DNA of 63,934 bases, counting the filler, from Aduncisulcus paluster (Eukaryota): the NCBI GenBank assembly GCA_024181965.1. It is 12 parts of 12 records of this genome, joined end to end, with 100 filler letters (N's around TTAATTAATTAA, not from the genome) between each part and the next. Parts side by side here need not be neighbours in the genome. Positions count along the whole stretch, not along the records: positions 48,844 to 51,165 come from BQXS01011553.1; 11 more parts are not named here. One strand, 5' to 3'. The translations under genes and the position numbers were made by a program. Each line of letters starts with the position of its first letter. Within the stretch, counting starts at the first letter, position 1. Under the pieces are notes generated by a model, which saw nothing but the letters and a program-made list of their open reading frames with translations, was not told where the DNA came from and made no database searches. Of the stretch, positions 3,401-61,634 are shown in pieces.

Positions 3401-6400
3401 CAGCCTTGACAGCCATACTTGTTGAGCTGGGAGATAATGAAGTATGGAGAAGGAGAGAAGTAAAAGTATTATCCTTGAGAGAGCGTTGCATAATGCCATC
3501 GTCAAGAACAACACTCTCATGACCACTCCAACGACCAGTTAGGCATAGACACAGAGACATGGCTGAACAGAGGTCCGGAGGAAGAGAGAAATATCCACCG
3601 GAAGGAGAAACGACCTTGAGTTCACTCATTTCAGATTCTTCCTCCTCTTCTTCCTCGCTCTTGGACACTGCAGAGTCCAGAGATTTCACACCTTCTTCGT
3701 CGTATTTAACAATTTCAACAAGTTCTCTGTTACCTCCAAGGATACCAAGGATTGTATTGTTCAATTCTTGGTAATTCACAAGGAATATTTTCTTTCCGGG
3801 CGTTGCCAATACATGGGAAAGAACAGCTCCGCCAATGTGTGGTTGGTTCGGATGCAAAGAGAAGTGAGGAAAAGAAGTATGGAGAAGGAGAGAAGTAAAA
3901 GTATTATCCTTGAGAGAGCGTTGCATAATGCCATCGTCAAGAACAACACTCTCATGACCACTCCAACGACCAGTTAGGCATAGACACAGAGACATGGCTG
4001 AACAGAGGTCCGGAGGAAGAGAGAAATATCCACCGGAAGGAGAAACGACCTTGAGTTCACTCATTTCAGATTCTTCCTCCTCTTCTTCCTCGCTCTTGGA
4101 CACTGCAGAGTCCAGAGATTTCACACCTTCTTCGTCGTATTTAACAATTTCAACAAGTTCTCTGTTACCTCCAAGGATACCAAGGATTGTATTGTTCAAT
4201 TCTTGGTAATTCACAAGGAATATTTTCTTTCCGGGCGTTGCCAATACATGGGAAAGAACAGCTCCGCCAATGTGTGGTTGGTTCGGATGCAAAGAGAAGT
4301 GAGGAAAAGAAGAGAGAGGAAGGGCGACAGGGAAAACACTTGATTCACATTCGGTGGAAAAAGAAGTATGGTGAATTTCATAAGAGCTATTCTTTCCAAG
4401 CTTATCCACACAATTTGTGTATCTTTCTCGGAGATGCATGAACATGAAGGAACAGAGAGATTGAGCGACGTTTCCATTCCATATTCCAGCGCCATCGTCC
4501 TTCTTGACACAGAGAGCACCAAAGAGAGCCAGGAGATGCTCAGAAGTGAAACCTGGAGACTCGAATTGGGCATCGTTAGCAACAGATGTGAGGGTGAAGT
4601 ATACATTCGCTGGAAGTAACATGGCCATCTTTTCTCTTGATTTCTCAGAGAACTTGAGACTCAGTAGTAAGATTGTTGTGAGACTGGATAAAAGTTTGAA
4701 AGGAGAAGTAATGTCCCCGATTAAAATTGTTGGACGTGTGAGAAGGAAGACAATTGATGGGGGCAGTTTCTCAGGAAGAGCATCGTTAGCACTCTTCCAT
4801 AACATCGTGAACAAGGCCTCTTCTTCCGCATCACTACCCTGGAGCCTCCCACTCACCTGATCCTGGACAAGGCTTACACAGAGAAGCAACATATAGAGAA
4901 CAATCAAATCACAATCAAAGAGACACACGAGATCAGCAATATCACGCTTCACCTTATCATCAGCACGAGTGAACTTGTGAAGGTAAAAATCAGATATGGA
5001 AGCCAGGATATGCATTGAAAAGAGTGATGCAGCATCGAGAAGACTCACAGGGGAAGTATCTCCAAGCTGACATTTGCACAAACGTTCGTTAGCCGTCACA
5101 ACACACCCAGCCACTCCGACACTCAAGTTAAACACGATCATCTTAACCATGTCTCTCCTTGCTACAAGTGAAGCAAGAGTTGAGTTTGAACTATTCTGAA
5201 CTTGAGTGTGATTATATCCATTAATACAAGCCAGCAACACACATAACGCGGTCTCCATACTCCTTGTCCCTCTTCCGCGGACTATAACTTCGCTCATTCC
5301 CTCGACAATGAGACCACTGTTACGGACAGCATCGATCCCTTCCTTGAAGTCACACATAGTGTGAACGAGGGAGAGGAGGAGAATGAGGAGAGAGGCTGAG
5401 CCAGTTTCTAAGTTATCCAGAGGCGGATGAGAGAAGAGCAACTTTACGTCGGAGAGACGGGCTTTATCCATGAAAGCAGCATCAGGGATGGAAAGCTCAT
5501 TGGTATTCACATCAGTGAAATCAGCATCCTCTCCTGCAGCATTCCTCACCTTGTCCTCATGGTCAACAATCTCCCGACCACATTTCCTCATCTTCATCAT
5601 CACTGCTTGTGGAATCATCTGCAACAGACCGTATATCATATATAAACTCTTGTGTCTCACAGTCTTACACTCTTCAAGGGACATCTTAAGACTCTCACGG
5701 AGCTGTTCAACCTTACTTTTGTCGGGGACCTCAACCTGGAGCTTGGCCATCAATGCAGACATTCCTTGATTAATGTAACCTTCAAGGGGAAGGTTAAGGT
5801 CAGATCCAAGACGAAGAACCTTCCACACACTGGCCAAAGTTTGAACAACATGAACCACACTGGTATATTCGTTGCAAGAGACAAGAAGATCGGGTGCTGC
5901 AGATAGAAGCTTCTTAACGTGTGTGAATGGCACTGCACATTTCAAGTTGGCAGCTTGGATTGACTTGATGAGAGACTCGACGTGGATAGACTTAACCTTA
6001 TCCCACCATCCGGCGGTCTTGGGCTTCGAGAGTTCACTTTGCATGTTCCTACGTGCTTCTTCAACCTTCTCACCGAGTGTAACAACATAGACTTCACCAC
6101 ATACGAGGAGAGAGTCGACTTCAGGGTGAGCAAGAATAGGTAAGGGCTTAAACTCGAAGTGTGGCAGTCTAAGCAGTGAATGGAGATGGGAATAGGTAAT
6201 AGATGAGAGCAAAGAACTCATCTCATCATCCTTTGTGGAGGCTACAGGAGTGGAAGGAGCTGAGAGGGGAGCGCTGGATAGGGGATCAATGAAGTCATCC
6301 TCTTCTTCTTCAACGTGAGAGATCATCCGGACACCCTTTCTGCGGTCTTTCATGACATTAGACACACGTTTCTCGACACCGACACGACGCAACAACTCCT

Positions 6401-21696: not shown

Positions 21697-24600
21697 ATGA
21701 AGCCCGGAAAATATGTAGGTTGGCTCCTTAATGCCAGCCAAAATGGGATGTTAATTAATTTATACTTTATTAGAGAGATAGGAGGGGAATTCGAGATAAC
21801 TCTAGAATTCTCTCCTTATTTCCTCATTGAAGTGAATAGACCTGATCAAGAAAAGACACTTGAATCTCTACTCAAGCGGGAATTTTCTGGAATTAGTTCC
21901 ATTCGTTCTATAACAAAAGAGTGTCTTGAAGATCCTAGACATATAAGTGGTAGACTTTCACAATATTTGAGGGTTGAATGTTACACCGATAACGATGTCC
22001 GTCAAATTTCTCGGGCCATTATGGTCGCCAAACAAACTTATGAGGCAAGCCAAGATTCTGAGCAAGGAGATCCCTTGGGCAATATTCCTGGGGCCAGTTA
22101 CGGAATGAATGACGATGACTTCGCCATTGACAGCACTTTATTGGCCTCTTTTCTTGGAGACACAACTGAATCCAAATCTTCACATCACAAAGGTTCCAAA
22201 GGTCAACCTGGACATAAAGATGATTCAAAAGACTCTATCATGAAAATAGGTTCCATGGTCAGCGATATTCGTGAATATGATGTTATGTACCTCCAAAGAG
22301 TTATGATTGAACTCAATATCCGTATTGGAAAATGGTATGAAGTCAACGTCACTGCTGAGGGTAATTTTATTACTCCAATCCCCGATATTGAGGCCAGGCC
22401 CAGTCTTAAGGTACTTGCATATGATATCGAAACAACCAAGAAACCACTCAAATTTCCAGATAGTAATTCTGATAGTGTTATGATGATTTCTTATATGACT
22501 TGTGGTCGAGGATATCTCATCGTCAATCGTGCTGTTGTATCGGAAGATATCGATGATTTTGAATATACTCCGAAGAACGAATATGTTGGAAAGTTTAAGG
22601 TCTGGAATTGTCCATCTGAAGAAGCTACCCTGTTGAAATTCCTTGAGCATTGTAGAGAAGTTTCGCCACACATCTATGTTACTTACAATGGAGATTTCTT
22701 CGATTGGCCTTTCATTGAACGACGTTGCCAAATGTATGGAATAGACATGGAACTATATATCGGTGTTTTCCATACCAGTGATCGGAGAGAGATGGACAGG
22801 AGACTTGAGGAAGAGATGCAACTCAAGGCAAGGGCAAAAGGGAAGGAAGAAGAGGATGATGAAGTGGTATTCGGACAGCGAATGAAGAGTAAGGAAAGGT
22901 TGCGAGAAGATGAAGAGAAGAAAGAAGATATCAGAAAAGCTGAAAAGGCATTCAAACCAAAATCATGGAGCAGTTCAGCCCTTTTTTGGCAATGGAAAGA
23001 GTCAGTTAAATCCTTTCATGAGCTTCGTACGACTGTGGGTCTCTCGGAAACTTCGAAACCACCCACAATACCTCCCAAGAGAGNNNNNNNNNNNNNNNNN
23101 NNNGGGAAGGAAGAAGAGGATGATGAAGTGGTATTCGGACAGCGAATGAAGAGTAAGGAAAGGTTGCGAGAAGATGAAGAGAAGAAAGAAGATATCAGAA
23201 AAGCTGAAAAGGCATTCAAACCAAAATCATGGAGCAGTTCAGCCCTTTTTTGGCAATGGAAAGAGTCAGTTAAATCCTTTCATGAGCTTCGTACGACTGT
23301 GGGTCTCTCGGAAACTTCGAAACCACCCACAATACCTCCCAAGAGAGATAATAGCAACGATAAGGATTATTATACGGCATTCAAGGCACCTCACTTGGAT
23401 GCCTTTAAATGGGTGAAGCGAGATTCTTACCTTCCTCAGGGAAGCCAGGGTCTTAAAGCCGTTACTCGTGAGAAACTCAAGTATAATCCACTTGAACTTG
23501 ATCCCGAGGATATGACTCCATTCGCTGCTCTTCATCCCCAAGTTCTGGCCTCATACTCAGTATCAGATGCCGTAGCAACATACTATTTGTACCAGAAATA
23601 TGTACATCCATTCATTTTTGCTCTGTGTACCATTATTCCTCTGACACCTGAATTGGTCCTCAGAAGTGGAAGTGGAACGTTGTGTGAATCCTTGCTCATG
23701 TCTAAAGCTTTCGAGGAAGGTATCGTCTATCCAAATAAGCAGAAAAATCCCCCTCTAACATACCACAAAGGTCGTATGCTCGATACTAGCACTTACATTG
23801 GTGGTAGAGTTGAAGCCCTACGAAGTGGAGTCTTCAGGAACGATTGTGAGTATTTATTTGAATTAGATCCATCGGGATATGATTACCTTATTGATAAGCT
23901 GGACAAAGACCTCATCTTTTCGTTGCGACAAGATTGTGCAGTCGTTGGTGACTCAGACTCTGAAGTTATAGCTCAGGTCAAGAATTACGCAGAAATTCGT
24001 GCAAACTGTATTAAAAAACTTGAATCCCTTCGTGATTGTCCTGTCCAGACCTCCAAACCATACATTTATCATCTTGATGTTGGAGCTATGTACCCATCGA
24101 TTATTCTTACAAATCGTATGCAACCCCCATCTGTGGTTTCCAAAGAACGATGTGAATGTTGTATTTTCAATCCCAAGGGTTGTGTGGAAAATCCCATGTG
24201 TCAGAGGAAAATGATTTGGCGATGGAGGGCAAATGCATTCGCAGCAACACGAGGGGAAGTCAAACAACGAATCGCAGCGATCGAAAGCCGGAATCCAGTA
24301 ATTCCGACCCGAACGAAACGTGAAGTTAATTATTCATTTGCTTCCGAAGATGATAAAGCCGCTTATTTGAAGAAAGAGATCGGACTGTATTGTCGTAAAA
24401 CATACGGTAAAACTCACGAAGAGCTCAATGAATATAGGACAGTTGTCATGTGTCAAAGAGAAACACCTTTCTATGTCAACACTGTGCGATCTTTCAAAGA
24501 TGAACGTTTTAAGTATAAGAAATTGCAGAAAAAAGCCTTCAAAAATATGATGAAATACAAGGCCATCCAAGGACCTGAGTACCTTCGAGCCTGTGACAAC

Positions 24601-35057: not shown

Positions 35058-38000
35058 ATGCTTCACCTCCAGCAACAATGGCTGGAGGCTCAAAATATTT
35101 CAGCAACTAAACGAATTGATGCCGCATTGTCGTTTTCACACTCTTTATTCACAGCTTTGGATAGTCATACTGAAAACTTGACCGTTTCTATTGATGGCAT
35201 CGAAAAGGATATCGCATATCTCGAAAATAATGTATTTTTGATATCAAAACCTGCCTTAAAACTTGAATCATATCTCTCGTCATATATAGAGAAGCGAAAC
35301 CGCCTCACAGTGACTAACCTCTTATTAAAACGACTTTCGATAACAAAAGAGCTTCGAGATTTTATCTTGTTGCCAATTATTACATGGAAAGATCTGAAAA
35401 TCTTGGTTTTTTGTTCAAGAAGACTCGACCAAATGATATTTGAAGCAGAAATAATGGCTCACCAGGGGTGGGACTGTGCCACAAAGTGCTTAGCCGATCT
35501 TTATGATCTTCGGGTTGCTTGTGCATGTGGTTGTGTTCCGTGGATTGAAAAGACTTTGTCCACTGCTGATGATGATGTTATTGGATCTGATATCGGGAGT
35601 TTTTGTGCGGGTGATAAACTGAGTATCTTTGCTGAAATTGTTGGATGGATTCTGAATATTACAAAGGATCAAGAAATTCATGGCATTGTCCACCACCCTT
35701 CTGGTTCGGGTTCATCAAAGACTCTTCATGGGCTTACAAATCGAGTTCTACAAGCTATCACCAACAGATTTTGTAAGAGGATTATCGGAAGCTATGATGA
35801 ATGGTTTTGTGACCCTGAAGAACGAGCTTCTTTACTCTCATCGAGTCAACAATCCAACGTGGAAACCAAGAAGTCAGAATCAGAGAAATCCACTCTTTCT
35901 GGGAGGTTAAAGGGAATATGGAAGAGGGGAAAAACAATTGCAGAACGTTTTACTGGATCTTTCTTCAAACATGATATTGAATCCAAGAATAATTCGCCCA
36001 AACAAGAACCTTCGCATCAAAAGATAATATCAAGCCATGATCATAGTTCTTCCTTGCCACTTGCCTCGCTGACCTCATCTTTATCTGGATTCTTCACTTC
36101 TTTCTCATCTGCTCTATTAATATCTCAAAAGGAATTAGCATGTATATTATGCATGTCTCCTTCATGTTATATCCATAAAATAATGCGAATGGTGTTTGAA
36201 TCTAATACCCAGAGTTCAAGCACAAAGGATCCTTCTGTCTCCTCTTCGGCTTCTTCAATTGTACCTGACTCAAAAGAAGGCACGAAGAATGTAGATGTTG
36301 CGGGAGCCAATCATTTTAAGTCTGATAGTCCACCAGTCGATAAGGATTCTGCAGATAGATTCGGAGATATTGATTATCAGACTCAAGGCCATGTGAGTAC
36401 AGGGAATCCAAATGAATGTTCTCCAGATAAAGATAGGGCCAATCCAAGTGCATTTGATAAGATCACAACTTCTTCTTCCTCTCCAAAGTTGTACATTACT
36501 CCGTTGCTCCAAGGTGGCAGGAAGACACCAGCGTCTTCTCCACCAATCTCCTATCTTTCTTTGTCGTTTCTCTATCTTTCTCTCCGCTCTGTTTTCCGTT
36601 CTTTGTGCATCTCCTTCATCGAATCTGTGTGTGGCTCTGTGTATGGTCACAGTGATGATCTTGTGCTCAGTGTTCTGAATGTGATGATTGACGTCTGTGA
36701 TACTTGTATCCAAGGCTGGTTGAGGGCATGTGACGTAAATATTGTCCCTCTTACATATTCCCCAGATCTTATTTCTCAGATTGAAGACGAAAAGAAGAAG
36801 GAAGGAGGGGAATACAGGAAAGAAGAAGAGAGGGAAAAGAAAGAAGAGGAGGAGGAAGAGAGAAGAGACAAAATGAGTATTAAAACACATTCTATGACCC
36901 ATTCTATTGGTTCTGAGGCCTCAGATGATCCTTTGAAGCCTATTCCCCCTTTTCCCTTGAATTATCTCCCTGGTTCCACCGATAACTTGGCTGATCTCGA
37001 CAGACTTGTTGCATTAACACACTGTTCAAGGTTATCTATGACTCCGACAGTCATGTCTCGTCTCCTGTTAGAGAACAGAGTCACTAAACAAGCAGAAAGT
37101 ATAGATCTCGCTGACGAATTGGNNNNNNNNNNNNNNNNNNNNGATCCTTTGAAGCCTATTCCCCCTTTTCCCTTGAATTATCTCCCTGGTTCCACCGATA
37201 ACTTGGCTGATCTCGACAGACTTGTTGCATTAACACACTGTTCAAGGTTATCTATGACTCCGACAGTCATGTCTCGTCTCCTGTTAGAGAACAGAGTCAC
37301 TAAACAAGCAGAAAGTATAGATCTCTCTGACGAATTGGTGACTTGCTCAGATGGACCACTGTCCGTTTCTCCACTGACATTATCTGTCCCTTTCCCTTTA
37401 ATTTCTCCCTCTCCTCCTTCGCTTCTTGTGTCTTTGTTGACTCAACTATCTGGAACGCTGGCTAGAACCTTAAACAAGAGAGGAACTTTCAATGCTTACT
37501 CGGTGTCAGCTCTTCAACGTGCATCTCTACAACCGAAACGACCCTCACTGACTCATATTCCTGCCCTTAACTCTCGTCTTGGATGGGTGTTATCATTCAG
37601 AGGGATTATTAAACAGAGAAAGAGAGGAGAGGAAGAGCGCATCCGAGAATTATCTTCTTCCTCTCCCTCTTCTTCCACTCGAATCATGACTTCTCTTGAT
37701 CGGTCTGTTCGTGATGTCATACATAGCGTTATCATTGACATGTGTACCTGTGTCACTGCTGTGGGAATGTCATGTATTCGGAAGTCACCTTCCTCAATAT
37801 CTTCTACTTCTTTCTCCTCAAGTTGGGGCTGGGCCGGCAAAACAGAGGCTCAAGTTGTCCGAATTAATGGTCTTACTGACATTCGAGAGTGTGTTCTTGA
37901 ATTGTGTGGTCTTACCGATGACCTTATTCCCGCTGGAAGTGAATCTGAAGGATCTGAACAAGAGAAAAGGAGTTGTCTTGCCAAGATGATATTATTTCAT

Positions 38001-39257: not shown

Positions 39258-41803
39258 CTAATATTCTTGTTCGAATCCACTTCCAAACTCTTCTTCGTCC
39301 TCATTTACATTTATATGAATCCCATGGCTATTTAGAACATGCCCTGATTGAGGAGAATGATCGGTAAATCCTTTCGTTTCATCCTTTTCTTCGCGATGAT
39401 CCGGATCAGAAAGTATTTTATGACTCTTGATTTCGCTTTCTTTTGGGTTTAATTGTGGTTGGCGTTGTTTGGGGGAAATATACTTTTCTTGAACTTCATC
39501 CAATTCTCCTTCCAAAACACGAATAAAACTTTCAAAATAACTCCCGTCGCCATCAATAAAACCTGAATGTGATGAGGATGGAAGAACTGGACTTTCTATT
39601 TTTAAATCATATGTTTTATCTCCAGAATCTGAAGGTTTTGAGGAAGAATCCCTATGAGAATGTATAATCCTTGCTCTATTCACAACGGGAAGCGTAGATC
39701 TCCTCTTAACATTCAATGGTGGTTTAGGTGATCCAATACTTGGTACTTGGCTTGATAGAGTTCCTTGATAATCATCTCCTTGATGATCATCTCGATGTGA
39801 TCTAAAATGATGTGGAAAAGTGGATGATTTGGAGCTTTGGTGAATATTCTGGCGGATTGGACGGGTTTCTGTCCGCTGTTGGACGGAGGGAGTTGATTTT
39901 CTGGGGATACCTTGAGATTTGAGGACGAGGGAATGATCTTTTGCGAGATCAATGATATCAATGTTCGAATCGTGTAACCCAGGATGGAGATCAAATTGAC
40001 TGTATAATTCTATTTTAGGTTTTGAGAAAGATCCAGTGGTTCCATTAACTATCACTTTTCCTTTCTCAGAATCTTGGGAATAAAGATCTTTGGAACGATA
40101 ATGAGAGGAGTCTTCATTTTGGCCAATCTCATTTGGATGTGAGAAACTAGCTTTGTGAGCCTTTGAATCGGAAACAGAGCTTGCAGAATAATGTTGATGT
40201 GAATCCGAATGGTGATGAATTCCTTCAAAATGAACACGATCGGCAGTCACCTCTCTTGGTCTGATTCCAGTAGATGCGACTGATGGAGACATTCCAACGT
40301 GAATACTCCCATGGATTGAAGAAGAGGGTTTGCCCCGAAAGAGGGTCTTTCTTGCTGAAGTGATTTGATCTTGCAAAGAAGATGGTGCATTCTTAAGGGT
40401 AATTCCTTGAGAACGAGATCGAGGGGGAAGAGGGAGTGATGTCTGACCAGGAGATGGGGAATGTCTTGTACTATGACTCAAATGACCCATTTGTCCACTT
40501 GTGGCGGTGGTTGTTGATGCAGAATCAGAAGAATATCTCTGTGGATTCACAACAATTCGATTAGACTCGCGACCAGATGATATCGAGCTGAGATGGTCAA
40601 CAGGAGTCATGGATACGTGGAATTCTGGCTCAGACTCTTCTTCTTCGGCCATAGATCTGAGTGGATGTTCCCTATCATGGCCAATAGACTCAATGGGGGA
40701 AGGCTGAGATATTGTGGATCTTCTCCGGAGAAGTTTAATCGTTTCATGTTGTTTTGCCGCCAATTTCTTAAGTCTTACGATGGTGCGTCGTTGTTTTATG
40801 AGACTTTCTTCAAGACGAGTTATGTAATTCTTCCTTTCAGTAGCTTCATTTCGAAGACGTTGATTTGACTTAGTTAAATCATTAAGACGGGATAGAGCCC
40901 CTTTCATTTCACTCGAATGCTTCTCAAGAAAGGTTCTACCGCCCCGCCGAATGCGGATAAGCTCTTTTTCAAGACTATGGACTTTGGAGGAGTTTGCAAG
41001 ATGTTGTTTGAGTTCAGCTTTTCGTTTCTTTTCAAGGTCAATAAGCATAGATTTGAGTTTTTCATTTTGAGTTTTCAANNNNNNNNNNNNNNNNNNNNTT
41101 TTATGAGACTTTCTTCAAGACGAGTTATGTAATTCTTCCTTTCAGTAGCTTCATTTCGAAGACGTTGATTTGACTTAGTTAAATCATTAAGACGGGATAG
41201 AGCCCCTTTCATTTCACTCGAATGCTTCTCAAGAAAGGTTCTACCGCCCCGCCGAATGCGGATAAGCTCTTTTTCAAGACTATGGACTTTGGAGGAGTTT
41301 GCAAGATGTTGTTTGAGTTCAGCTTTTCGTTTCTTTTCAAGGTCAATAAGCATAGATTTGAGTTTTTCATTTTGAGTTTTCAAATCAATAACGGATTGAC
41401 CAGCGGTTAAGGAAATAGGAACTTTTTTAGAAAATTGAAAATCTGTTGAAGAAAAGTCTGATGAAGAGTCTAGATGATGAGAAAGTGCTTTTGATCGTGT
41501 AGATTCCCTACGAAGATCATCAGATACAAAATCAAGCCATCTATCCCGCCGATTTTTTTGTCTCATTTGAAGAGAGGGTCCACGCATTTTCATGGTGGCT
41601 AACTTTCTTGCTGAAGATGCTTCAGCTTTAGTTTGATCAAGTTCTTCATGGAGAATGGCCTCTCTTTCTCGATAATGACGAATTTCTTTGGCAGCTAATA
41701 TAATACGTTCCTTTTGCGACAAAATCCTTCCACTGGGGGAATTGATTGGGATATCAGATGAATAATCTTGAGCAGAATGTTGAGAAAATATTTGATGTGA
41801 CAT
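39258..41803 (-). CDS. Coiled-coil protein with long Ser/His-rich disordered tail (one gene split by a gap duplication)
   Basis: ORFs 41075..41803 and 39258..41078 share ~285 bp duplicated around N 41079-41098. Confidence 0.8.
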
Positions 41804-45840: not shown

Positions 45841-48743
45841 ATGAGTTCATCCACAGATGCTGTTATTCAAACTGTAGAACCTGAGTTTGTTCATGAAGGA
45901 GATGAGAAATGCTGTCCAATTCCTGGAGATGCCCCCAATATTAAGAGTGCAGAGTTTCCAACTATCAAAGCAATAGATGGAACCAAGGAAGAAGGTAAAT
46001 ATGGATACGATCAGAGTTCTGAAGCACAAGAGATGATGAAAGGAGAGGGTAATGGATATTTTACCCATATCTCCATTCCTTTCTCCTCATCTTCCCCAAT
46101 GAAAGGTGCTTATATCTGTCTAAGTAGTTCTTGGACTTCACCTCCATCACACCTTATCTTCACTCTCACATCTTCAAAGGGTGATAAAACATCCAAGAAA
46201 TACGAATTTCCTGGATTTAGACGTAAACATTGGTATTTCCTTCCTGTTGATCTCCCTGATGTTGTTCTGTGTGAGATTACAGGGAAAGGAAAGTGGGAAG
46301 AGTATTTTGATATCGAATCCCTTGTTTTCATTAGTAGAGAAGAAACTCCTGAAGAAATCAAATCTCGTGAAGCCAAAGAGAAACTATGGTCTGAAGCTCC
46401 AATTGTGAAACCAGAGTTTGTTAAGGAAGGAGATTATGATTCTTTTGGTAGAGATTCTAAGGAAGGAGGAAGATATTCTATTCCCATTCCACGAGATGAT
46501 ATAAAGCTTGTAAATTCTTCGTTCTCAATGGTTAATTGCAAGAATGATTCAGTGAGTAAGGAATCTGGGGGGTATGATAGGGGTTCACAAGCACAAAGAA
46601 TGTTAAAAGGGGAAAGTGATGTTTCTTTATCCCATCTTTCCATTCCTTTCCCATCACCTAGTCCAATGAAAGGTGCTTATATCTGTGTGGATGATGATTA
46701 TAGTTCACCCTCTCTTCTCTTCACTTTCACTGATTGTGATGGTAAGAAGACCTTCAAGAAGTATGAATTCACAAGACCTAAACATGATTATGAATGGCAC
46801 TTCCTTCCTATTGATTTGGATAACGTTGTATTGTGTGAGATTGAAGGGAAAGGAATGTGGGATGATAAGAACAGTCGAAGTTTCTACATCTACTCCCTTG
46901 TTTTCCTTCGAGGTGAAGATCTTCCCAGTCTCATGAGTTCATCCACAGATGATGTTATTCAAACTGTGGGACCTGAGTTTATTCATAAAGGATCGGCGGG
47001 TTGCTGTCCAATTCCTCGAGATTTCCCCAATGTTAAGAGTGCAGCATTTCCAACTATCAAAGCAATAGATGGAACCAAGGAAGAAGGAGATGAATACTAC
47101 GATCAGAGTTCTTATGCACAAAAGATGATGAAAGGAGAGTATAATGTTGGACATTTTACCCATATCTCCATTCCTTTCTCTTCATCTTCCTCAATGAAAG
47201 GGGCTTATATTTGTCTAAATGATGAATTTTTACTCCCATCACATCTTATCTTCACTCTCACATCTTCAAAGGGTGATAAAACATCCAAGAAATACCAGTT
47301 TCCTGAATTTTATGGTCGTCATTGGTTTTTCCTTCCTGTTGATCTCCCTGATGTTGTTCTGTGTGAGATTACAGGGAAAGGAAGAAAGACAGAGTGTTTT
47401 AATATCCTCTCCCTTGTTTTCATAAGAGAAGAAACTCCTGAAGAAATCACATCTCGTGAAGCCAGAGAGAAACTATGGTCTGAAACTCCAGTTGTGAAAC
47501 CAGAGTTTGTTAAGGAAGGAGATGTAAAATATGAAGGTAGAGATTCTATTCCCATTCCGCCTGATGATCGAAAGCTTGTAGATCCTTCATTCTCAATGGT
47601 TAATTGCAAGAATGATTCAGTGAGTAAGGAATCTGGGGGGTATGATAGGGGTTCACAAGCACAAAGAATGTTAAAAGGGGAAAGTGATGTTTCTTTATCC
47701 CATCTTTCCATTCCTTTCCCATCACCTAGTCCAATGAAAGGTGCTTATATCTGTGTGGATGATGATTATAGTTCACCCTCTCTTCTCTTCACTTTCACTG
47801 ATTGTGATGGTAAGAAGACCTTCAAGAAGTATGAATTCACAAGACCTAAACATGATTGTGAATGGCACTTCCTTCCTATTGATTTAGATAACGTTGTATT
47901 GTGTGAGATTGAAGGGAAAGGAACGTGGTATTATGGAAAGAATGATAGAAGTTTCTACATCAACTCCCTTGTTTTCCTTCGAGGTGAAGGTATTCCCACC
48001 TCTCATCCTCTTCTTTCTCCTGTTCCTGTTCCTTCCAGTTCCTCCAAGACACCCACATCAACTTTGCCCTTGGCATCAAAACCTGTGAAAGAAGCCGTGA
48101 AAGAAGAAGAAGAAGAAATTGTTATTAAAGGAAATGATAAGGATCCAAGACCAAAAGACACCAAACAGAAGAAACATACGGATAAAAAGAAACATAACCC
48201 CAAGGATGGCAAGCCCAAGTATAACCCCAAGCACGACTCGCTAACCCTGACATCTGCATCCACGCTGACTTCACAGTGCATCATTGGCAGTGGTGGGTTC
48301 GGAGAGGTTCTTCTTGTTCTTATTGATGGCATTCCTTTCCCATGTGTTCTGAAGAAGATGCTTCGGATTGCGGACAAAACTGTTGTGAAAGGGTGTCGGA
48401 AAGAGTTTAAAGTGCAACTCAAGTTGTTTACGAATCCCAAATGTTTCAACCGTATCCCACGTCCTCTGTATATCCTTGACCTGCTTGATTGCGATATGAA
48501 AGGTGTGTATGGCTTCCTGATGGAGTTCTGTGTTGGAGGCAGTGTGAGTGCGTTTGCCAAGCGTTGGTGTGCTGATGGCAAGTATGTGAGTGTTGATGAT
48601 ACTGCTGATGATAGTGAACCCTCAGACTCAGACTCGTCCTCAAGGTCTGGCTCTGGCTCTGAGAGTGCCGATGTTGACACTGCTGTGCCTGACTTTGACG
48701 CCATGACACTGAACCCTGTGAAAGTGTGTTCGTTATGTGTTGG
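45841..48743 (+). CDS. Atypical protein kinase with four tandem ~170-aa N-terminal domains (A-B-A-B), 3'-partial
   Basis: 1092-nt unit repeated from 46933; kinase N-lobe IIGSGGFGEV...VLKKM...FLMEFCVGG from ~48270. Confidence 0.9.
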
Positions 48744-49220
48744 NNNNNNNNNNNNNNNNNNNNNNNNNNNNNNNNNNNNNNNNNNNNTTAATTAATTAAN
48801 NNNNNNNNNNNNNNNNNNNNNNNNNNNNNNNNNNNNNNNNNNNGCGATAAAGTTAGAACTTGTGTGTGAGCTGTTGGAAGTGTGTCTGAGGTGTGTTTGC
48901 GTGTGAGTGCTTGTGAACAACCCCTCAGAAAGTAAGGGGTGAGTGTGGTGATGTTCTAATTTTTCTCAATCTTTGATATATTATTATTTATTTATTTGTT
49001 TTATAATTATATTTTATTTATTTTATTTAATTTATATTTATTTTATTTATATTTCATTGTTGATTCGATTATTGATTAATTGATTTCTTCAACGAGATTC
49101 TGATTCATCTTAAACAGTAAATTGTCTTCAAGCATAGTCTTGCTAAGATTGGTTTTATTCTTATAACTAAGGTAACACCACAATTGTATCGCAACAAAAG
49201 AGGATCTAAAGAAGCAACAG

Positions 49221-49583
49221 ATGGTGGCTGCTGAGCCTATTGATGTGATTGACCATCGGAAAGAAAAAGGTCAATGGCAATTCCTGATCAAATGGAAGGA
49301 ACTGGAAAAAGAGTTTTCCACATGGGAAATGGCTGATGAAGTTCAGCATTATGATACTGTTAAGAGATATATTGAAGACAGAGGATTTATTTTGTAAAAG
49401 AAAATTCCTTGTGTTTCGCTAAGCTTGGGGTCAGCTTCCAGCTCTATGGAGAGGCAGTGTAGGAGGTTACGAAGTCTTTGAGCTTGGGAACCTTCATACG
49501 AAGCTCTTCCTTTTACTCTTATAATAAATTGTACCACACAACTACTTACAAACACGCGATACCACAACCACACAGATCCTACA
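49221..49583 (+). mobile_element. Chromovirus (Ty3/Gypsy) 3' remnant: chromodomain, PPT and 3' LTR
   Basis: 49221..49397 translates to ...IDVIDHRKEKGQWQFLIKWKELEKEFSTWEMADEV...YIEDRGFIL* (below ORF-track cutoff); purine tract GGAGAGGCAG at 49448-49457. Confidence 0.8.
49458..49583 (+). repeat. 126-bp LTR
   Basis: Begins TGTAGGA, ends TCCTACA (7-bp inverted termini), AATAAA at 49523, directly after the PPT. Confidence 0.75.
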
Positions 49584-49605
49584 CATAAGAGGAAATCCAT
49601 AAAAT

Positions 49606-49678
49606 AGGACCCTACCGGACTCGAACCAGTAACCTGCGGCACTGCAAACCGTTGCTCTACCAATTGAGCTAAAGATCC
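49606..49678 (-). tRNA. tRNA-Cys (GCA)
   Basis: GGATCTT-TA-GCTC-AATTGGTA-GAGC-A-ACGGT-TTGCAGT-GCCGC-AGGTT-ACTGG-TTCGAGT-CCGGT-AGGGTCC-T; cloverleaf, U73 discriminator, TTTT terminator downstream. Confidence 0.93.
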
Positions 49679-49991
49679 ACATTTCCAAAATTTCAAATAT
49701 AATATCCATAATATATATTTCTATTTTATCCATATTTCACAAAATTCTATTTAGCTATTACTTCTTTCTTAATAATAAAACCTAAATTTTATTATTTCAA
49801 AATCAAATTTTTTTTGAAACCCTGAGATAGAAGATGAAGTCAAAATTCAATTAAATAATGACAAATGCATTTTCAAATTCACAAAATAGTTACGATACAC
49901 ACACAAACGATCAACTAGTAGCTTGTTCAAACAAACGAAAAATCAAATAAGATTTTCACAAACACCAATACATAAAGAGTGACAAACTAGC

Positions 49992-50578
49992 TCATTTTTG
50001 ATCTTTCTTATCTTCAGATTCCGAAGATGTGGAGTGGAATGAAGATTTCGAAGGGATATTCAGTTTTTCATAACTTGATGAACTTCGACTTGAACTTTCG
50101 GAAATGAGAGAATGAGGTTCTCCATAGGAGATAAGATGACTGCAAATTATATCATCAATAGATGGAAGCTCAAATCCTTCACCAATCTTTGGAAGTAAAT
50201 ATTTAATGGTTTGCACCTTCAAACGAGCCTGATGAACACTCATTCGATAATCTTCATTGATTTGAGTAAGACCTATGAACACTTCATTCAAACACGAATG
50301 AATAGGTTGAAATTTACCTCCTTCAATGGTTAGCAAAGATTTAAACAAAGGCGATCTATGGAGGGGAGGACACATATTATTTTCCATCAATCGCATTATT
50401 ATTTTCATAAGTTCAAAATCATCAGCCTCTCCAATTTGAATTTTTCTAATGACTTCCCTAAATATGGGCAATGAAACATAAGGATGTTCACATATGAACA
50501 AAGAAAGAATGGACATTCCAAGAGAATATCCATCACTCTTTTGAGATTGAAGTCCAGCAAGGAGAGTCTCGTAAGAGA
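49992..50578 (-). pseudogene. 5'-truncated C-lobe of the atypical kinase family
   Basis: SYETLLAGLQSQKSDGYSLG...LLPKIGEGFELPSIDDII aligns with 53844..55136; everything before subdomain VIII is missing. Confidence 0.75.
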
Positions 50579-50580
50579 GC

Positions 50581-50868
50581 TGGAAACTCGGAATCCGCCT
50601 CATATTTCTCCCTCCTTACTGCCCTTTTCTGAACCCAATAGAACATATGTTCTCTACAGTTAAAGCGGCTCTGCAACGTATGACAGCAGATCATGAACTA
50701 CGTTCAGAAGGGCTTGGTGCAATGTTACATTTCGCATTTCTGCAGTATGCTTCTCCTCTTACCGATTTATCAGAAAACTACAAGGAATGTGGAGTATTCT
50801 ATGAAAGTGTTTATGAACGTTCTGAGGAAACAAATGAAGTTATTAGACTAATAAACCGAAAAAAATGA
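50581..50868 (+). mobile_element. Tc1/mariner/IS630 transposase C-terminal fragment
   Basis: In-frame extension of ORF 50647 gives GIRLIFLPPYCPFLNPIEHMFSTVK, the LPPYSPxLNPIE motif carrying the catalytic E. Confidence 0.8.
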
Positions 50869-50875
50869 TTATTTT

Positions 50876-51165
50876 TCATCCTCCACTGGTTGTGACAGAC
50901 CCAGGAGTTTGACCTGACTGAAGACCAGATTCATTACCTAAACGAGTCACAGAAGCTGTTTCCGAACCTGCCACAGACATAAGTGGCTGTTCTGGAGCTA
51001 TTGGAACTGGTAAAATTTCTGGTCTAGCAGGTTCTAGCCGCGAAGAAATCAAATCTTGTTGAGCTCTAACTTGGGAATGCTGAATTTCCAATTGTCTTTC
51101 AAGTTGAATTTCTCGTTGCTCAATTAGAGGGGTAAATATCGTTCGTAATGTATCTGCATGTCGTT
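50876..51165 (-). CDS. C-terminal fragment of an unknown gene convergent on the Tc1-like ORF
   Basis: Frame is open from the contig edge (RHADTLRTIFTPLIEQREIQLERQLEIQ...) to a TGA 7 bp from the transposase stop. Confidence 0.4.
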
Positions 51166-51265: not shown

Positions 51266-53725
51266 TGTTGTCACAGCCCCGAGTCTTTCATTATCATTAG
51301 TCAATAATCTTGATAACGCGTCGGCAGCTCCATTTGCCTGTCCCGGAACGTGTCTTATTGTAAACGAATATTCACATAACTCCAAAAACCATCTCGTTAG
51401 TTTTTGATTTGGTGTCTTCTGAAGAAATGTCAGATTTCGATGGTCTGTAAATAGCACAAAATTCCGATACAGCAAATAATGTCGACACTTCCGAATTGTA
51501 AACACAATTCCAAAACATTCCTTTTCGATCACTTTCCATGCACGTTGCTGTGCTGTTAATGTCTTCGAAACGAACTTTATGATACTTCTTCTTCCTTTTG
51601 AATCCTCTTGAATCAGTATCCCTCCAACTCCATAATCCGACGCATCGGTATATAATGCCAAAGAACAGTCATCCTTCGGGAACGTCAGCACTGGAGCTCC
51701 CAGTAATTTCTTCTTTAGCTCCCTGAATGCATTTTCACATTCCTCATTCCAATAGAACTCTCCGGATTTCGTTGTTAACTGTGATAACGGATAAGATGTT
51801 GAACAGTCCCCGATAAAGTCCCTACAGAAATTTATCATTCCCAGAATAGATCTGACGTTTTTCTTGGACTTTGGGGTTCTAATCGCGTTAATCGCTCTAA
51901 TCCGATCAGGATCAACTCTCTTTCCCTCCTTTGATATCTCATATCCCAGGTATGTCAATTTTTTAACTCCCAACATGCATTTTTCGATGTTTATGCGTAG
52001 CTTATACTCTTCAATCCTCTGCATTATGAGTTTCAGGCTTTCTAGGAAGCCTTCCGTCGTCTTCCCGGCAACTAAAATGTCGTCAATGTAAATTAAACAA
52101 TGCTTTCCTATTAAATCAGAAAAAATGTGCTGCATACACATTTGAAAGTGACTAGGGCCATTCTTTAATCCAAATGGAAGGCATTTCCATTGAAACATCC
52201 CCATAGGCGTTTCAAATGCCGTTAATATCCGATCACTCTCTTTTATGGGTACTTGATGAAACCCTTGGCTCAGATCAATCAAGCCAAACACCGTACATCC
52301 TTCCAACCTATCTAACATCATGTCTATATGCGGGAGGGGGAATTTGAAACCAACGGTGATGCTATTAAGAGTTCTATAATCTACGCATAATCTCCACTTG
52401 TTTCCCTTCTTCGGGACCACCACAATCGGCGAAAAAGCAGGGGCTTTGCACTCCTCTACTACGCCATCGTGTTTCAACTTTCGCATTTCATCACCTATGA
52501 ACTCCATATGTTTAGGCGATATTCTTCTTCTTTCTGAAGCCAGAAACTTCTTTCCTTTTTCCAATACAATCTCATATTGGTCAATTATCTTCGGTGCGGA
52601 GTCACACTGACTCATCACCTCCATATAATGATCTGTAATCTCCAAAATCGATCCCTCAATCCCCTCTACTACTTCAGACGAGATTAGATCCTGTGATCCT
52701 GGTAATTCCAAATCATCGGATTCCATTTCATTCTGTTCTATCCCTCGATATGACTGTTCCAACAAATCTAATAATCCCTTTTCTAATATTGTTTTTAGAC
52801 CTAAGATTATCTCGGATCCTTTGGACGGCCATACTAGAAATACTTCCCAGAAGGAAATTGGTTTTCCTAACGTGCCATTAGGTATTGTTATAAATAATAT
52901 CACACGGTGCTCTGACATCATTTCAGAGCCATCCGCAAGTGTAATAGTGCAGACAAATCGTTCTTTCCTCACGCTTCCAGGTATTTCCAGCAGCATATGT
53001 TCAGGGATAAAAGACATAGATGCTCCCGTATCTAAGATTGCTCTGCTACTAATCTTCTCCTTACTTCCCTCAGTATTTCTGATCAATAAAGGTATTGTAA
53101 CGATTGATGTAGTACTTGTCGCAGTTGTAAACAGTACAACTGACGGTGTTACTCTCGATAAATAAGCAGATTTGTCCTTTACTGATCGCTTGGGATAAGG
53201 ACATTTGGATGCATAATGGCCGGTTTTTCCGCAGTTGAAGCAACGAATCTGATCTAATGGTTTCGATTGTCTCTTAGCTTCTTTTGTGAAAGGTTGATGT
53301 GAAGATTCACGACGTTTACCACTGGTACTGGCAGAAAATCGTTTCTTTTCGTCTTCGTAGCCGCGAGCATCATCTTGAGCTTCAGCTACTAAAGCAATTT
53401 GCTCCATTAGTGTTTTTGTAAGCAATTTCATTGAAAGCTCTTGTGAATCCAACGCCACTTCCATTCTTTGTCGGAAGCGGGAATTTTTGATTCCTCGAAG
53501 GAAGTATTTCCCAATAAGTTCATCACTGGGTCTTTCGACTTCAGCAACACCATCCAAAACCTCTCTATACTTGACGACATAAATAGAAGCTTGTTTAAGA
53601 TTCAAAGTAAAGAGTTTTAGCTTCTGGAATTCGTAGACAGCGTCCAGACCCGTGGTAGCACCAAAGTACGCAGAAACTGTTGTCAAAAAGGAAATTTCTC
53701 GTTCTTTGACTTGTTCTTCTGTACA
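51266..53725 (-). mobile_element. Ty3/Gypsy gag-pol (zinc knuckle, protease, RT, RNase H), both ends partial
   Basis: CFNCGKTGHYASKC, ILDTGAS, WRLCVDYRTLN, LPFGLKNGP, YIDDIL, TDASDYGVG, TDHRNL in one frame. Confidence 0.96.
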
Positions 53726-53825: not shown

Positions 53826-55136
53826 CATAAACCCAAGCACGACTTGTTATCGCATACCCTGACATCTGCATCCACGCTGACTTCACAGTGCATCATTGGT
53901 AGTGGTGGGTTCGGAGAGGTTCTTCTTGTTCTTATTGATGTTACTGGCATTCCTTTCCCATGTGTTCTGAAGAAGATGCTTCGGATTGCGGATGAAAAGG
54001 TTGTGCAAAAGTGTTGGGAGGAGTTTAAAGTGCAACTCAAGTTGTTTAAGAAGTTCAACAATCCCAAATGTGTCAACCGTATCCCACGTCCTCTGTATAT
54101 CCTTGACCTGCTTGATTCCGATATGAAAGGTGTGTATGGTTTCCTGATGGAGTTCTGTATTGGAGGCAGTGTTACCGACTTTGCTAGGAGTTGGTGTGCT
54201 GGAGGGAAGAAGGTACATTCCATCTCAAGAACTGTGTCAAAATGCAAGGATTCTGAATCTGAATTTGAATCTGAAGACTCAAGCTCTGACTTTGACTCTG
54301 ACTCTGATTCTGATTATGACTCAAGCTCCACTCGCATTGACCCCATGACCCTTGATCCTCTGAGAGTGAGTGCATTGTGTGTTGGAATGATTGAATGTCT
54401 TTCCGAAGTGTTCAAAGCCAAGTCCGACCTTATTCACCGAGACATTAAACCTGACAACTTCCTTATTCGTGTTGATCCGAAAGATGGAGAATGCACCGTT
54501 GTCCTTGGTGATCTTGGTCTTGCTCAAATTCAAGACTCCATCTCTTCTTCCAAATCGTGCAAAAGTTTTGTTGCTCACTCGAGATCTGAAGACAAATCCA
54601 AACCCAAACGCTCCATATGTGGAACCCTTGTGTACAACTCTTGTGAAGCCCTTGAAGGAATGCAAAACCAAAAGAGTGATGCTTACTCACTCGGGCTGAC
54701 CCTGTTCGCAGTCTTCGAGGGTCAGGATCCTTTCCTTCAAATGAAAGTGTTACAAGGAATCGACCGAATTGAATTTGTCACCCGATTGTCAAGGTTAATA
54801 CGGGATGATATGGGTCCAAAACTTTCTGAATCTCGTCTTTTCAAAACTCTAAAAACCATTGAAAGTGGTAAGTTCAACCCTGTTTATTCCTGTCTGAATG
54901 AAATATTCGAAGGATTGACAAAGGTTGACATTGGTAAACGCATGAATGTTCATGAAGCCTGTGTGAAAGTTCAATCCATCAAACATCTTCTTCCAAAGAT
55001 TGGAGAAGGGTGGAAATGTCCATCCATTGACGATATTATTGCACAACAACGAAAGATTTATGGCGGTTCAATTGGCACCATTGGAGATGATCTTAAGGGT
55101 GTTGATTTAAAGAAAGATTGGGATAAGAGTACGTAA
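53826..55136 (+). CDS. Atypical Ser/Thr kinase (paralog of 45841..48743), 5'-partial
   Basis: GSGGFG, VLKKM, HRDIKPDN, DLG in place of DFG, GTLVYNSCE in place of APE. Confidence 0.9.
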   Translation, partial: HKPKHDLLSHTLTSASTLTSQCIIGSGGFGEVLLVLIDVTGIPFPCVLKKMLRIADEKVVQKCWEEFKVQLKLFKKFNNPKCVNRIPRPLYILDLLDSDMKGVYGFLMEFCIGGSVTDFARSWCAGGKKVHSISRTVSKCKDSESEFESEDSSSDFDSDSDSDYDSSSTRIDPMTLDPLRVSALCVGMIECLSEVFKAKSDLIHRDIKPDNFLIRVDPKDGECTVVLGDLGLAQIQDSISSSKSCKSFVAHSRSEDKSKPKRSICGTLVYNSCEALEGMQNQKSDAYSLGLTLFAVFEGQDPFLQMKVLQGIDRIEFVTRLSRLIRDDMGPKLSESRLFKTLKTIESGKFNPVYSCLNEIFEGLTKVDIGKRMNVHEACVKVQSIKHLLPKIGEGWKCPSIDDIIAQQRKIYGGSIGTIGDDLKGVDLKKDWDKST

Positions 55137-59025: not shown

Positions 59026-59334
59026 NNNNNNNNNNNNNNNNNNNNNNNNNNNNNNNNNNNNNNNNNNNNTTAATTAATTAANNNNNNNNNNNNNNNNNNN
59101 NNNNNNNNNNNNNNNNNNNNNNNNNATCATCATTTTCACCTGTATTGGCGTTTTTCAATTGGCTTCTTGTTTGTACCATTTTAACAGAAAAATTTTGGCG
59201 TCAATTATACAATAAACTTTAGTTTGATAGGATTTTGATCAAAATGTGGCCAAACTAAACTATAATGCGGTCCAATTTATTAATAAACAGATCTCGAGCG
59301 AACCAATCTATTTTTAGAATGTCCCTGAGAATGG

Positions 59335-61268
59335 TCACCACACTTTCGAGGAGATTAAACGAGAGTTGGTCAAAGGTCCAGTTTTGCATCATGTTGATTA
59401 TTCGTTGCCATTCTTGCTGAGAACAGATGCGAGTGGTTATGGAGTGGGAGGTGTCCTACTTCAGATTGATCATGAAGGAAGGGAGAGAACAGTTCGTTAC
59501 ATTGCCAAAACTTTCACAGAAGCGGAAAGGAAATGGTCGACCAATGAAAAGGAGTGCTATGCCATTAGGTATTGTCTGGAGAAAATCAAAGATACCTGTT
59601 TTGGTCTTCCGATTAGAATTCAAACGGATCACCGCAACCTACAATTCATGAAAAAGAGTGTCACCCCTAAGATCGCGAGATGGTATTTATTTATGCAACA
59701 GTTCGACTATTCTATCGAACATATTGCTGGAGCCAACAATGAAGTTGCAGATGCATTGAGTAGGGTGGGACACGTCAGGAGGATTGAGATTACGGACGAG
59801 AGAGTCGCTGAAGTTATTGAAGCTCAAAAAGATCTCTCTCAACATATTAGGAAGAAGTCTGAGCTGGAAGAAGGTATTTTGGTGGATGAAGAAGGTTTGA
59901 TACCAATACCAGATGATAAGATTGAATTGAAAGGCAAGATTATTCGAGATCACCACAATTCAGTTGTAGGTCATGGAGGTCTCGCAGCAACTTGCTATAA
60001 AATCAAATCAACGGGCTATACCTGGCCCTCAATGTATGCAGATGTGAAACAACACATCAAAGTTTGTGCTATTTGTCAGAAAGTGAAGGAAAAGAAAATT
60101 CCACCGGCCCCTGTGTTATCCATAACTATGGAGACACCATTTCACACGGTATTTGTGGATACTCTAACGGTTTCGGCGGATGAGGAGAAAGAAAAGTATG
60201 TTATTGTGATGTTAGACAGTTTCACTCGTTGGTGTGAACTCATTCCTGTCGAAAGTCTTGAAAGAATTCCTGCCTGTGATGCGATGCTCCCATTTTTGGC
60301 AAGACACGGTATACCGAAAGTTATTCACACTGATGGTGGATCTCAGTTTGCTAATTACCTAGCAGATCATTTATGGGACACTCTAGGTGTCAAGCATCAC
60401 ATATCGATTGCACACCATCCAACTGGTAATGGTGCAGTGGAGAGGGTAAACAAAGAGATAAAGAAGCATCTTCGTGGACTATTTTTGGATTTGATGCTGG
60501 AAAACAAGTGGACTGTTTACGTACCGGTGGTACAGAGCATCATTAACAATACATTCCACAAGTCCATTGGATGCACCCCATTTGAGATGCTGAGAGGAAT
60601 TAGACCCTCAAGAGTTTTACAGGGTCGATTTTCCAAAGAATGTGATAAAAGTGAAGCAGAAATGCCTGCGAGCAGAAAATCAGAGATAGATTACGTCAGG
60701 GAGTTGGTGAACAAACTAGAGCAACTCCATAGACGTTCTGTCATAATCCAACGCAGAATTATTGAAAAAAGGGAAGGGGATGAGCCTGAGGTTGCTATTG
60801 GCTCATATGTTCTGAAAAAGAGAGTTATTCCCGAAGGAAAACTGTATGTCGACTTGATGGGACCATATGTGGTCGTAGAGAAGCTTGGAGATAGATTGTA
60901 TCTATTAAGAAGCATTGTAAACATTGAAGAGGAAGAAAAAGTGCATGTCAATGACATTATGCCTTTCCAAGAAGATCCGACGAGATCGCTCGAGGAGATG
61001 AGAGCGTTAGCGGCACGTGATTATGGCTGGACACTCATCTCGGAGATTTTGGAGCATAAACGGGAACAAGGAAAGCTATTCCTTAAGGTAAGATGGAAAG
61101 GATGGTCAAAAACAAGCGAAACGTGGCAAGCCTACGAAGAACTGAAAGGACTCGCCAAGGTTAAGGAGTACATTAAGAAAAAACGTCTCCGGAAGTTATG
61201 ATTTTTATTGTAGCAGGATGGTCCTGCATGAAAAAAGGGAAGTGTAAGGATTCCAAGAAACAATAAAT
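59335..61268 (+). mobile_element. Chromovirus Ty3/Gypsy 3' half: RNase H, integrase, chromodomain, PPT and start of LTR
   Basis: TDASGYGVG, HHCC (HNSVVGH...CAIC), D..TDGG..E core, GPY motif, ILEHK...LKVRWKGWSKTSETW; PPT GAAAAAAGGGAAG at 61230-61242 followed by TGTAAGG. Confidence 0.93.
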
Positions 61269-61634
61269 TTAGCACAGTCTCACATTAACCAACGGACGAT
61301 CAGCTGAGACAGAGAACATAGCCTTCAGGGCTTGGCCACCACGACGATAGGGACAATCACGTTTGAAATGTCCGAGCTTACCACAATTAAAGCATTTCAC
61401 CTTACTGAGATCCCTCTTGGTTACTGCAGACTGGTGCTTTACCGGGGAATGTTTTTGGAGGGGAGTAGAAGTAGAGCGGCGTTTCTCCGGTTCCAAGTAC
61501 CTCTTAAATTCATCAATCACATCACTTACAATCGCTTGCTGCTCGAAAACCATCGCAGTCATCTCTGATATGGTAGGGGTGGGTTTCCCATCCAAGGCGG
61601 ATTCACAACGAACACGAAAACTATTGACGGTGAT
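61269..61634 (-). mobile_element. Ty3/Gypsy gag fragment on the opposite strand
   Basis: CFNCGKLGHFKRDC knuckle with context similar to the gag at 53200-53480; breaks off before the protease active site. Confidence 0.85.

Follow-up and report, generated by a model that had tools for sequence, protein, structure and literature searches.

A chromovirus 3′ end tail-to-tail with a tRNA-Cys gene in Aduncisulcus paluster: a candidate case of integration downstream of tRNA genes

Results

The 3′ end of a chromovirus, carrying a short repeated long terminal repeat (LTR), lies tail-to-tail with a genuine tRNA-Cys gene in the genome of Aduncisulcus paluster, and we hold this anatomy with high confidence. 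The 22 bp that separate the two, and the side of the tRNA gene on which the element sits, make this copy a candidate for integration targeted to the 3′ flank of tRNA genes.

The window, by which we mean the whole stretch of DNA analysed, is 63,934 bases long (62,866 of them other than N). It is made of 17 short contigs of 2.2-14 kb each, chained by N linkers, namely eleven 100-N linkers bearing TTAATTAATTAA and five 20-N gaps; the initial annotation had described 12 parts joined by 100-N filler. Such fragmentation is consistent with the published draft of A. paluster, which amounts to 29.4 Mb in 25,863 contigs, with an N50 of 4.6 kb and a GC content of 39.1% (PMC9933649). The focal contig covers positions 48844-51165 (2,322 bp, GC 0.354), and the features that matter here are the following:

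48844-49182, no strand: unrelated GT-rich, then AT-rich sequence adjoining the element, reaching from the first base of the contig to where homology breaks off
49183-49397, + strand: pol remnant, the last ~70 codons, with the integrase C-terminal extension and the chromodomain (Pfam Chromo; match to P0001/P0002)
49398-49457, + strand: 3′ untranslated sequence with a polypurine-like tract at its end (direct reading of the sequence)
49458-49583, + strand: 3′ LTR, 126 bp, TG...CA (start of a run contig; inverted repeat)
49584-49605, no strand: spacer from the LTR end to the tRNA 3′ end, 22 nt, CATAAGAGGAAATCCATAAAAT (sequence; bridging run contig)
49606-49678, - strand: tRNA-Cys(GCA) gene (ARAGORN, Rfam, cloverleaf fold)

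The chromodomain is encoded at the end of an open reading frame of 73 aa (49176-49397, + strand, TAA stop at 49395-49397), which matches Pfam Chromo (PF00385) with an E-value of 1.5e-9 and 38.1 bits, the cut-off being 25.1. The stop codon is separated from the LTR by 60 bases, and these end in the purine tract GGAGAGGCAG (49448-49457, 9 purines out of 10), placed immediately 5′ of the LTR TG. The LTR, which includes TATAATAAA at 49520-49528, begins with TGTAGGA at 49458 and finishes with TCCTACA at 49583, so that its termini form a perfect 7-bp inverted repeat. As TCCTACA is rare, the + strand of the window having only two occurrences in 63.9 kb, inverted ends of this length are unlikely to have arisen by chance; indeed, the probability of meeting the motif in the 148 bp that lead from 49458 to the tRNA gene is about 0.6%. 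The segment therefore shows the TG...CA ends, the inverted termini and the preceding polypurine tract of an LTR, and exists in more than one copy (see below). The chromodomain, stop codon, polypurine tract, 126-bp segment, 22-nt spacer and tRNA-Cys gene had all been proposed in the initial annotation, and each was found where it had been placed.

The tRNA-Cys(GCA) gene, located by ARAGORN, scores 57.5 bits against Rfam RF00005 (gathering threshold 29) with a full-length match to model positions 1-71, and its minimum free energy fold is an intact cloverleaf; the discriminator base is T. No other Rfam or ARAGORN match was obtained in the 62,866 real bases of the window. Read on its own strand, the gene ends in ...GGGTCCT followed by ATTTTATGG, i.e. 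the mature 3′ end is succeeded by ATTTTA and no CCA is encoded. The TTTT run, already noticed as intact in the first reading of this DNA, lies at 49601-49604 within the spacer, which also holds a candidate copy of a target-site sequence, CATAA. The LTR thus ends 22 bp from the mature 3′ end of the tRNA and 17 bp from its terminator. The presence of the T-run, together with the lack of an encoded CCA, indicates a genomic gene and not a copied tRNA.

We then rely on two sequencing runs, X1 and X2, both from one sample, whose contigs were aligned to the focal contig; X1 contains 90% of the sampled words of this contig, and X2, presumably an RNA run, has no contig covering 49234-50169. The X1 contigs differ markedly in depth along the element. 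The internal part (49183-49485, with two unaligned letters at its right end) stands at 3390 and the LTR (49458-49566) at 5178, while a 94-nt contig (49537-49630) that bridges the LTR tail, the spacer and the tRNA stands at 1308 and the unique sequence beyond (49651-50525) at 1204. These ratios suggest that the internal part exists about three times and the LTR about four times, depth not being in itself a copy number. The contigs overlap by about 30 bases, which fits their having been built from 31-mers. The LTR contig begins at the very first LTR base, 49458, so that base 49457 must vary among the copies, as expected if they comprise both 3′ LTRs, with the purine tract in front of them, and 5′ or solo LTRs. 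A further branch at 49600/49601 is a hint that the tRNA with its ATTTT trailer also exists at other loci, with no LTR beside it. In the 3′ untranslated part, the sole X1 contig over position 49421 has two extra bases (AG) after it relative to the window, a small assembly or strain difference.

Within the window the element has no second copy: a blastn search with the LTR region and the chromodomain returned only the self-match, the next best being 17 nt long with an E-value of 1.5. An exact 26-nt pattern taken from the LTR had no match in public metagenome contigs and none in public genome contigs.

How far do these data fix the junction itself? The junction between the LTR and the tRNA gene is real and present at single-copy depth. 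As the run is possibly the assembly's own data, the bridging contig argues against a mis-join and does not amount to an independent replication; the idea that LTR and tRNA gene were wrongly joined in a fragmented short-read assembly, to which the very small contigs of the window, ending at repeats, and the N50 of 4.6 kb of the published draft (PMC9933649) lend some weight, is nevertheless very improbable with a read-length contig lying over the joint, and we discarded it. The exact right end of the LTR is less firmly fixed. That the 126-bp segment might not be repeated, which the initial annotation had named as grounds against its reading, is rejected for 49458-49566; the multi-copy contig stops there, 17 bp short of the proposed end, and the last 17 bp (49567-49583) lie in the single-copy contig. 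The end at 49583 is therefore given by the inverted repeat only, since the run contigs branch after 49566. An LTR of 109 bp ending at 49566 (TGTAGGA...TACCACA) would also be terminated by CA, with five of the seven positions matching the inverted repeat, and would put the tRNA 39 bp away instead of 22 bp, leaving the nature of the finding unchanged. However, the same branch would arise if this copy differed from the others by one base at 49567, the remaining 16 bp being shorter than a shared 31-mer, and the perfect seven-out-of-seven repeat ending at 49583 is rare; this repeat favours the longer LTR, and we consider the shorter one unlikely. The tRNA sequence could also be thought of as a by-product of reverse transcription, i.e. 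the complement of a primer tRNA left beside the LTR as an over-long primer-binding site. Indeed, the order on the + strand, LTR and then tRNA complement read from its 3′ end, has the orientation of a primer-binding site. But the LTR follows the pol stop codon and a purine tract, which makes it a 3′ LTR, a 22-nt spacer intervenes, the complement of CCA is lacking, and a TTTT terminator is found on the tRNA's own strand as in a genomic gene; the branch at 49600/49601 likewise points to the tRNA and its trailer existing where there is no LTR. We rejected this reading, whose probability is close to nil.

On its 5′ side the element is cut or interrupted. Homology to the family ends at 49182/49183, and the multi-copy X1 contig begins at the same base, 49183; the coincidence of the two implies that the window copy was cut or interrupted at this point. 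A 655-nt contig of X2 terminates exactly at 49182. Where the window reads ...HHNCIATKEDL, the two closest proteins, P0001 and P0002, read ...VANLRHCIATKEDL, and both have ...VVHVANLRHCIATKEDL... opposite the window's stop codon followed by HHNCIATKEDL. Upstream of 49183 no coding similarity was detected, the sequence being GT-rich and then AT-rich. Of the four bins that lie wholly within 48844-49182, three have a summed X1 depth of 170,000-247,000 and one, 49000-49077, has 33,661, against about 1,200 for unique sequence. Possibly a repeat of very high copy number has inserted into the chromovirus and this segment is its end; alternatively, simple sequence artefactually inflates the depth. The 5′ part had first been reported as missing; it is absent indeed, but the element is cut at 49182/49183, which goes beyond a mere absence.

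The identity of the family comes from its protein. Among longer proteins the only match of the 73-aa frame was P0001, a 180-aa protein that NCBI names a partial hypothetical protein of A. paluster and that carries SH3_Tf2-1 and Chromo domains (97% identity over 99% of the query). P0002 (217 aa), a cluster mate of P0001 with the same two domains and the same C-terminus, likewise partial and named as A. paluster, extends further into the integrase. From CIATKEDL to the stop codon the window frame is identical to both. The chromodomain at the C-terminus of the integrase, by which chromoviruses are defined, is present in the window frame as well as in P0001 and P0002. An exhaustive HMMER search with P0002 collected 884 proteins at E <= 0.001, only two of which, P0001 and P0004, reached E <= 1e-30. 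P0004, a relative of 1,679 aa from A. paluster at 44% identity, bears the automatic annotation 'Transposon Tf2-6 polyprotein, partial', and contains protease, RVT_1, RNase H, rve and SH3_Tf2-1 domains. The window copy, cut at 49183, has none of the protease, RT, RNase H and integrase core domains; the order PR-RVT-RNase H-rve-SH3 is that of this nearest long relative, at 44% identity. The search for a full-length pol of the focal family among longer proteins gave nothing beyond P0001 and one JGI protein at 32% identity, and a metagenome scan with P0002, in which 139 pattern stretches matched, yielded no relative. Judging by these sequence comparisons, the element is a Ty3/gypsy chromovirus of low copy number, hosted by a fornicate protist and belonging to a small and isolated family.

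The last feature of interest is the chromodomain itself. Chromodomains were located by phmmer in the fetched proteins (123 domain hits, 55 past the filter), and the best 45 of these 55 by E-value were aligned, the other 10 being omitted, to give 46 rows, i.e. the focal copy, P0001, P0002 and 43 others. The positions of the aromatic cage of HP1 served to place the three cage columns in this alignment. The assignment also follows the description given in the Skipper study (PMC5006619). The three columns are occupied by A, W and L in the focal copy, and by an aromatic residue in 35, 43 and 37 of the 43 aligned relatives, respectively; the first and third cage residues are both absent in 5 of the 43. 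In the phmmer alignment to human CBX5, the conserved W is retained and the next F is replaced by L. The chromodomains termed group II, as that study describes them, lack the cage's first residue and, in most cases, its third as well (PMC5006619). By its residues the focal chromodomain is thus to be placed in group II, with cage residues 1 and 3 lost, and as a consequence it may no longer read methyl-lysine.

Discussion

Does the position of this copy reflect a preference of its family for tRNA genes? We give even chances to targeted integration. The copy fits the downstream window of about 7-136 bp described for Skipper-2 in dictyostelids, being 22 bp away from a tRNA gene that is intact together with its terminator. 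The opposite reading is a chance or passive adjacency, in which tRNA genes are not favoured by the family and a decayed copy has survived in a gene-poor spot that tolerates transposons. The probability that an end placed at random lies no more than 22 bp downstream of the sole tRNA gene in the 62,866 real bases is about 3.5e-4, and that of its lying within 40 bp on either side is about 1.3e-3; the exact preservation of tRNA gene and terminator, and a distance and a side that lie within the Skipper-2 range, also speak against mere adjacency. However, the case was chosen for its proximity to a tRNA gene, which weakens these small probabilities. One visible copy provides no distribution of distances, and its truncation at 49183 leaves no 5′ LTR or target-site duplication to compare. 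The copy is a dead element, and the focal contig is rich in transposons: besides a truncated kinase paralogue, these 2.3 kb contain the remnant of a DDE_3 transposase (50575-50868) and possibly a high-copy repeat adjoining the element. Decayed elements gather in such transposon-rich places with no targeting involved. The two other broken Ty3/gypsy pieces of the window have no tRNA or other Pol III gene nearby, their visible flanks being short. Taken as a whole, chance adjacency has a probability somewhat below one half.

Also against targeting, chromoviruses with no such taste for tRNA genes, among them those of plants, can carry group II chromodomains, and 5 of the 43 aligned relatives share this state. 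The succession of SH3_Tf2-1 and Chromo at the C-terminus of the integrase, common to P0001 and P0002, is shared with Tf1 and Tf2, and these elements insert at Pol II promoters and not at tRNA genes. We regard it as possible, though on balance somewhat doubtful, that a chromovirus family of a free-living fornicate (Metamonada) independently evolved integration at the 3′ flank of tRNA genes, with the same cage loss as Skipper-2.

The closest parallel is indeed Skipper-2 of the dictyostelids. In the Skipper study, Skipper-1 has canonical chromodomains and shows no association with tRNA genes, while Skipper-2 has a group II chromodomain and is found downstream of tRNA genes (PMC5006619). The same study places 4 of 8 Dd_Skipper-2 copies 8-23 bp downstream of a tRNA gene, and the ranges are 7-133 bp for Dp, 54-136 bp for Pp and 26-97 bp for Df, i.e. 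7-136 bp overall (PMC5006619). A 2018 review presents Skipper-2 as the first LTR retrotransposon to prefer the downstream side, and insertion downstream of tRNA genes as known in dictyostelid genomes only (PMC5911963). The element described here resembles Skipper-2 in being a Ty3/gypsy retrotransposon with a C-terminal group II chromodomain on the downstream side of a tRNA gene, at 22 bp (39 bp with the shorter LTR). It differs by its host, which protein naming places among the fornicate metamonads whereas dictyostelids belong to the Amoebozoa, and by its LTR, 126 bp long against 208-315 bp (Table 1 of PMC5006619). Moreover, the preference of Skipper-2 rests on 4-11 tRNA-associated copies per species, as compared with the one copy here.

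Other elements share less with it. Ty3 (Saccharomyces cerevisiae) and DGLT-A (Dictyostelium) are LTR elements of the same superfamily that lie at a short fixed distance from tRNA genes and leave the gene undamaged; but they are without a chromodomain and insert on the upstream side, at the transcription start or about 15 bp upstream, whereas the present element sits downstream of the terminator. Tethering of Ty3 involves TFIIIB/TFIIIC, according to the 2018 review (PMC5911963). TRE3 of Dictyostelium is likewise found downstream of tRNA genes, at 40-150 bp, but it is LINE-like, without LTR or integrase, occupies a broader window and is guided by the B-box.

If the family does target tRNA genes, tethering would be the most likely route, judging from Ty3, TRE5-A and what has been proposed for Skipper-2. 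The integrase would be held by the Pol III machinery present on the tRNA gene, through TFIIIC or the terminating polymerase, and insertion would take place in the exposed, nucleosome-free 3′ flank of the gene, as has been proposed for Skipper-2. The cage-less chromodomain, the candidate contact surface, could then serve for protein contact instead of methyl-lysine reading.

In our literature searches, chromoviruses downstream of tRNA genes appeared only in the Skipper-2 work (PMC5006619); no relevant work was found on an LTR retrotransposon at a tRNA gene in Metamonada, and none linking Aduncisulcus with retrotransposons. The relevant publications on tRNA-gene-targeting retroelements since 2017 dealt with dictyostelids and yeast only. 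If the targeting is real, it would be new to this lineage, a further tRNA-targeting chromovirus and probably one of independent origin, which the difference between this host and the dictyostelids makes more likely. A second, unrelated lineage would then match the dictyostelids in side, approximately in distance, and in the change of its chromodomain, so that the role of the diverged chromodomain could be compared across lineages, and a metamonad would join the compact genomes in which 'safe-haven' targeting occurs. It would also mean that a degenerate chromodomain has repeatedly been re-tooled from the reading of histone marks to docking on Pol III/TFIIIC, and the case would be the first outside Dictyostelia. 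If the adjacency is due to chance, we are looking at an ordinary dead retroelement fragment.

Other elements and contig overlaps in the window

A second chromovirus 3′ end is present at 59318-61198 (+ strand), with RNase H, integrase and Chromo domains and 23% identity to P0002. Its stop codon is followed by GAAAAAAGGGAAG and then, at about 61245, by TGTAAGGA, an arrangement of polypurine tract and LTR start similar to that of the focal element. No tRNA gene was found in the next 436 bp (61199-61634). About 25 bp beyond 61245 there is a minus-strand gag-like frame with a zinc knuckle, running from 61634 to 61272, and the region 59318-61634 as a whole looks like nested or abutting elements. The contig 51266-53725 (- strand) consists of one open frame of 820 aa, a Ty3/gypsy gag(zf-CCHC)-RT-RNase H with both ends open.

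On the focal contig itself, the minus-strand frame 49992-50615 shows about 71% DNA identity over 187 nt to part of the Pkinase gene at 53826-55133, of which it is a truncated paralogue. Its upstream end overlaps the DDE_3 (Tc1/mariner-type) transposase remnant carried on the + strand, and the segment 50480-50560 consists of a high-copy repeat for which run contigs exist in many variants. Two kinase-like segments located on different contigs (48238-48587 and 53850-54214) are 86-97% identical, a sign that the gene belongs to a multi-copy family.

Four of the five 20-N gaps (2272-2291, 23084-23103, 37123-37142 and 41079-41098) have the same sequence on both sides, at 99-100% identity. The pairs are 2104-2271 and 2292-2459, 22840-23083 and 23104-23347, 36927-37122 and 37143-37338, and 40794-41078 and 41099-41383. 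By their sequence and position they look like contig overlaps left unmerged in scaffolding, and not like biological duplications.
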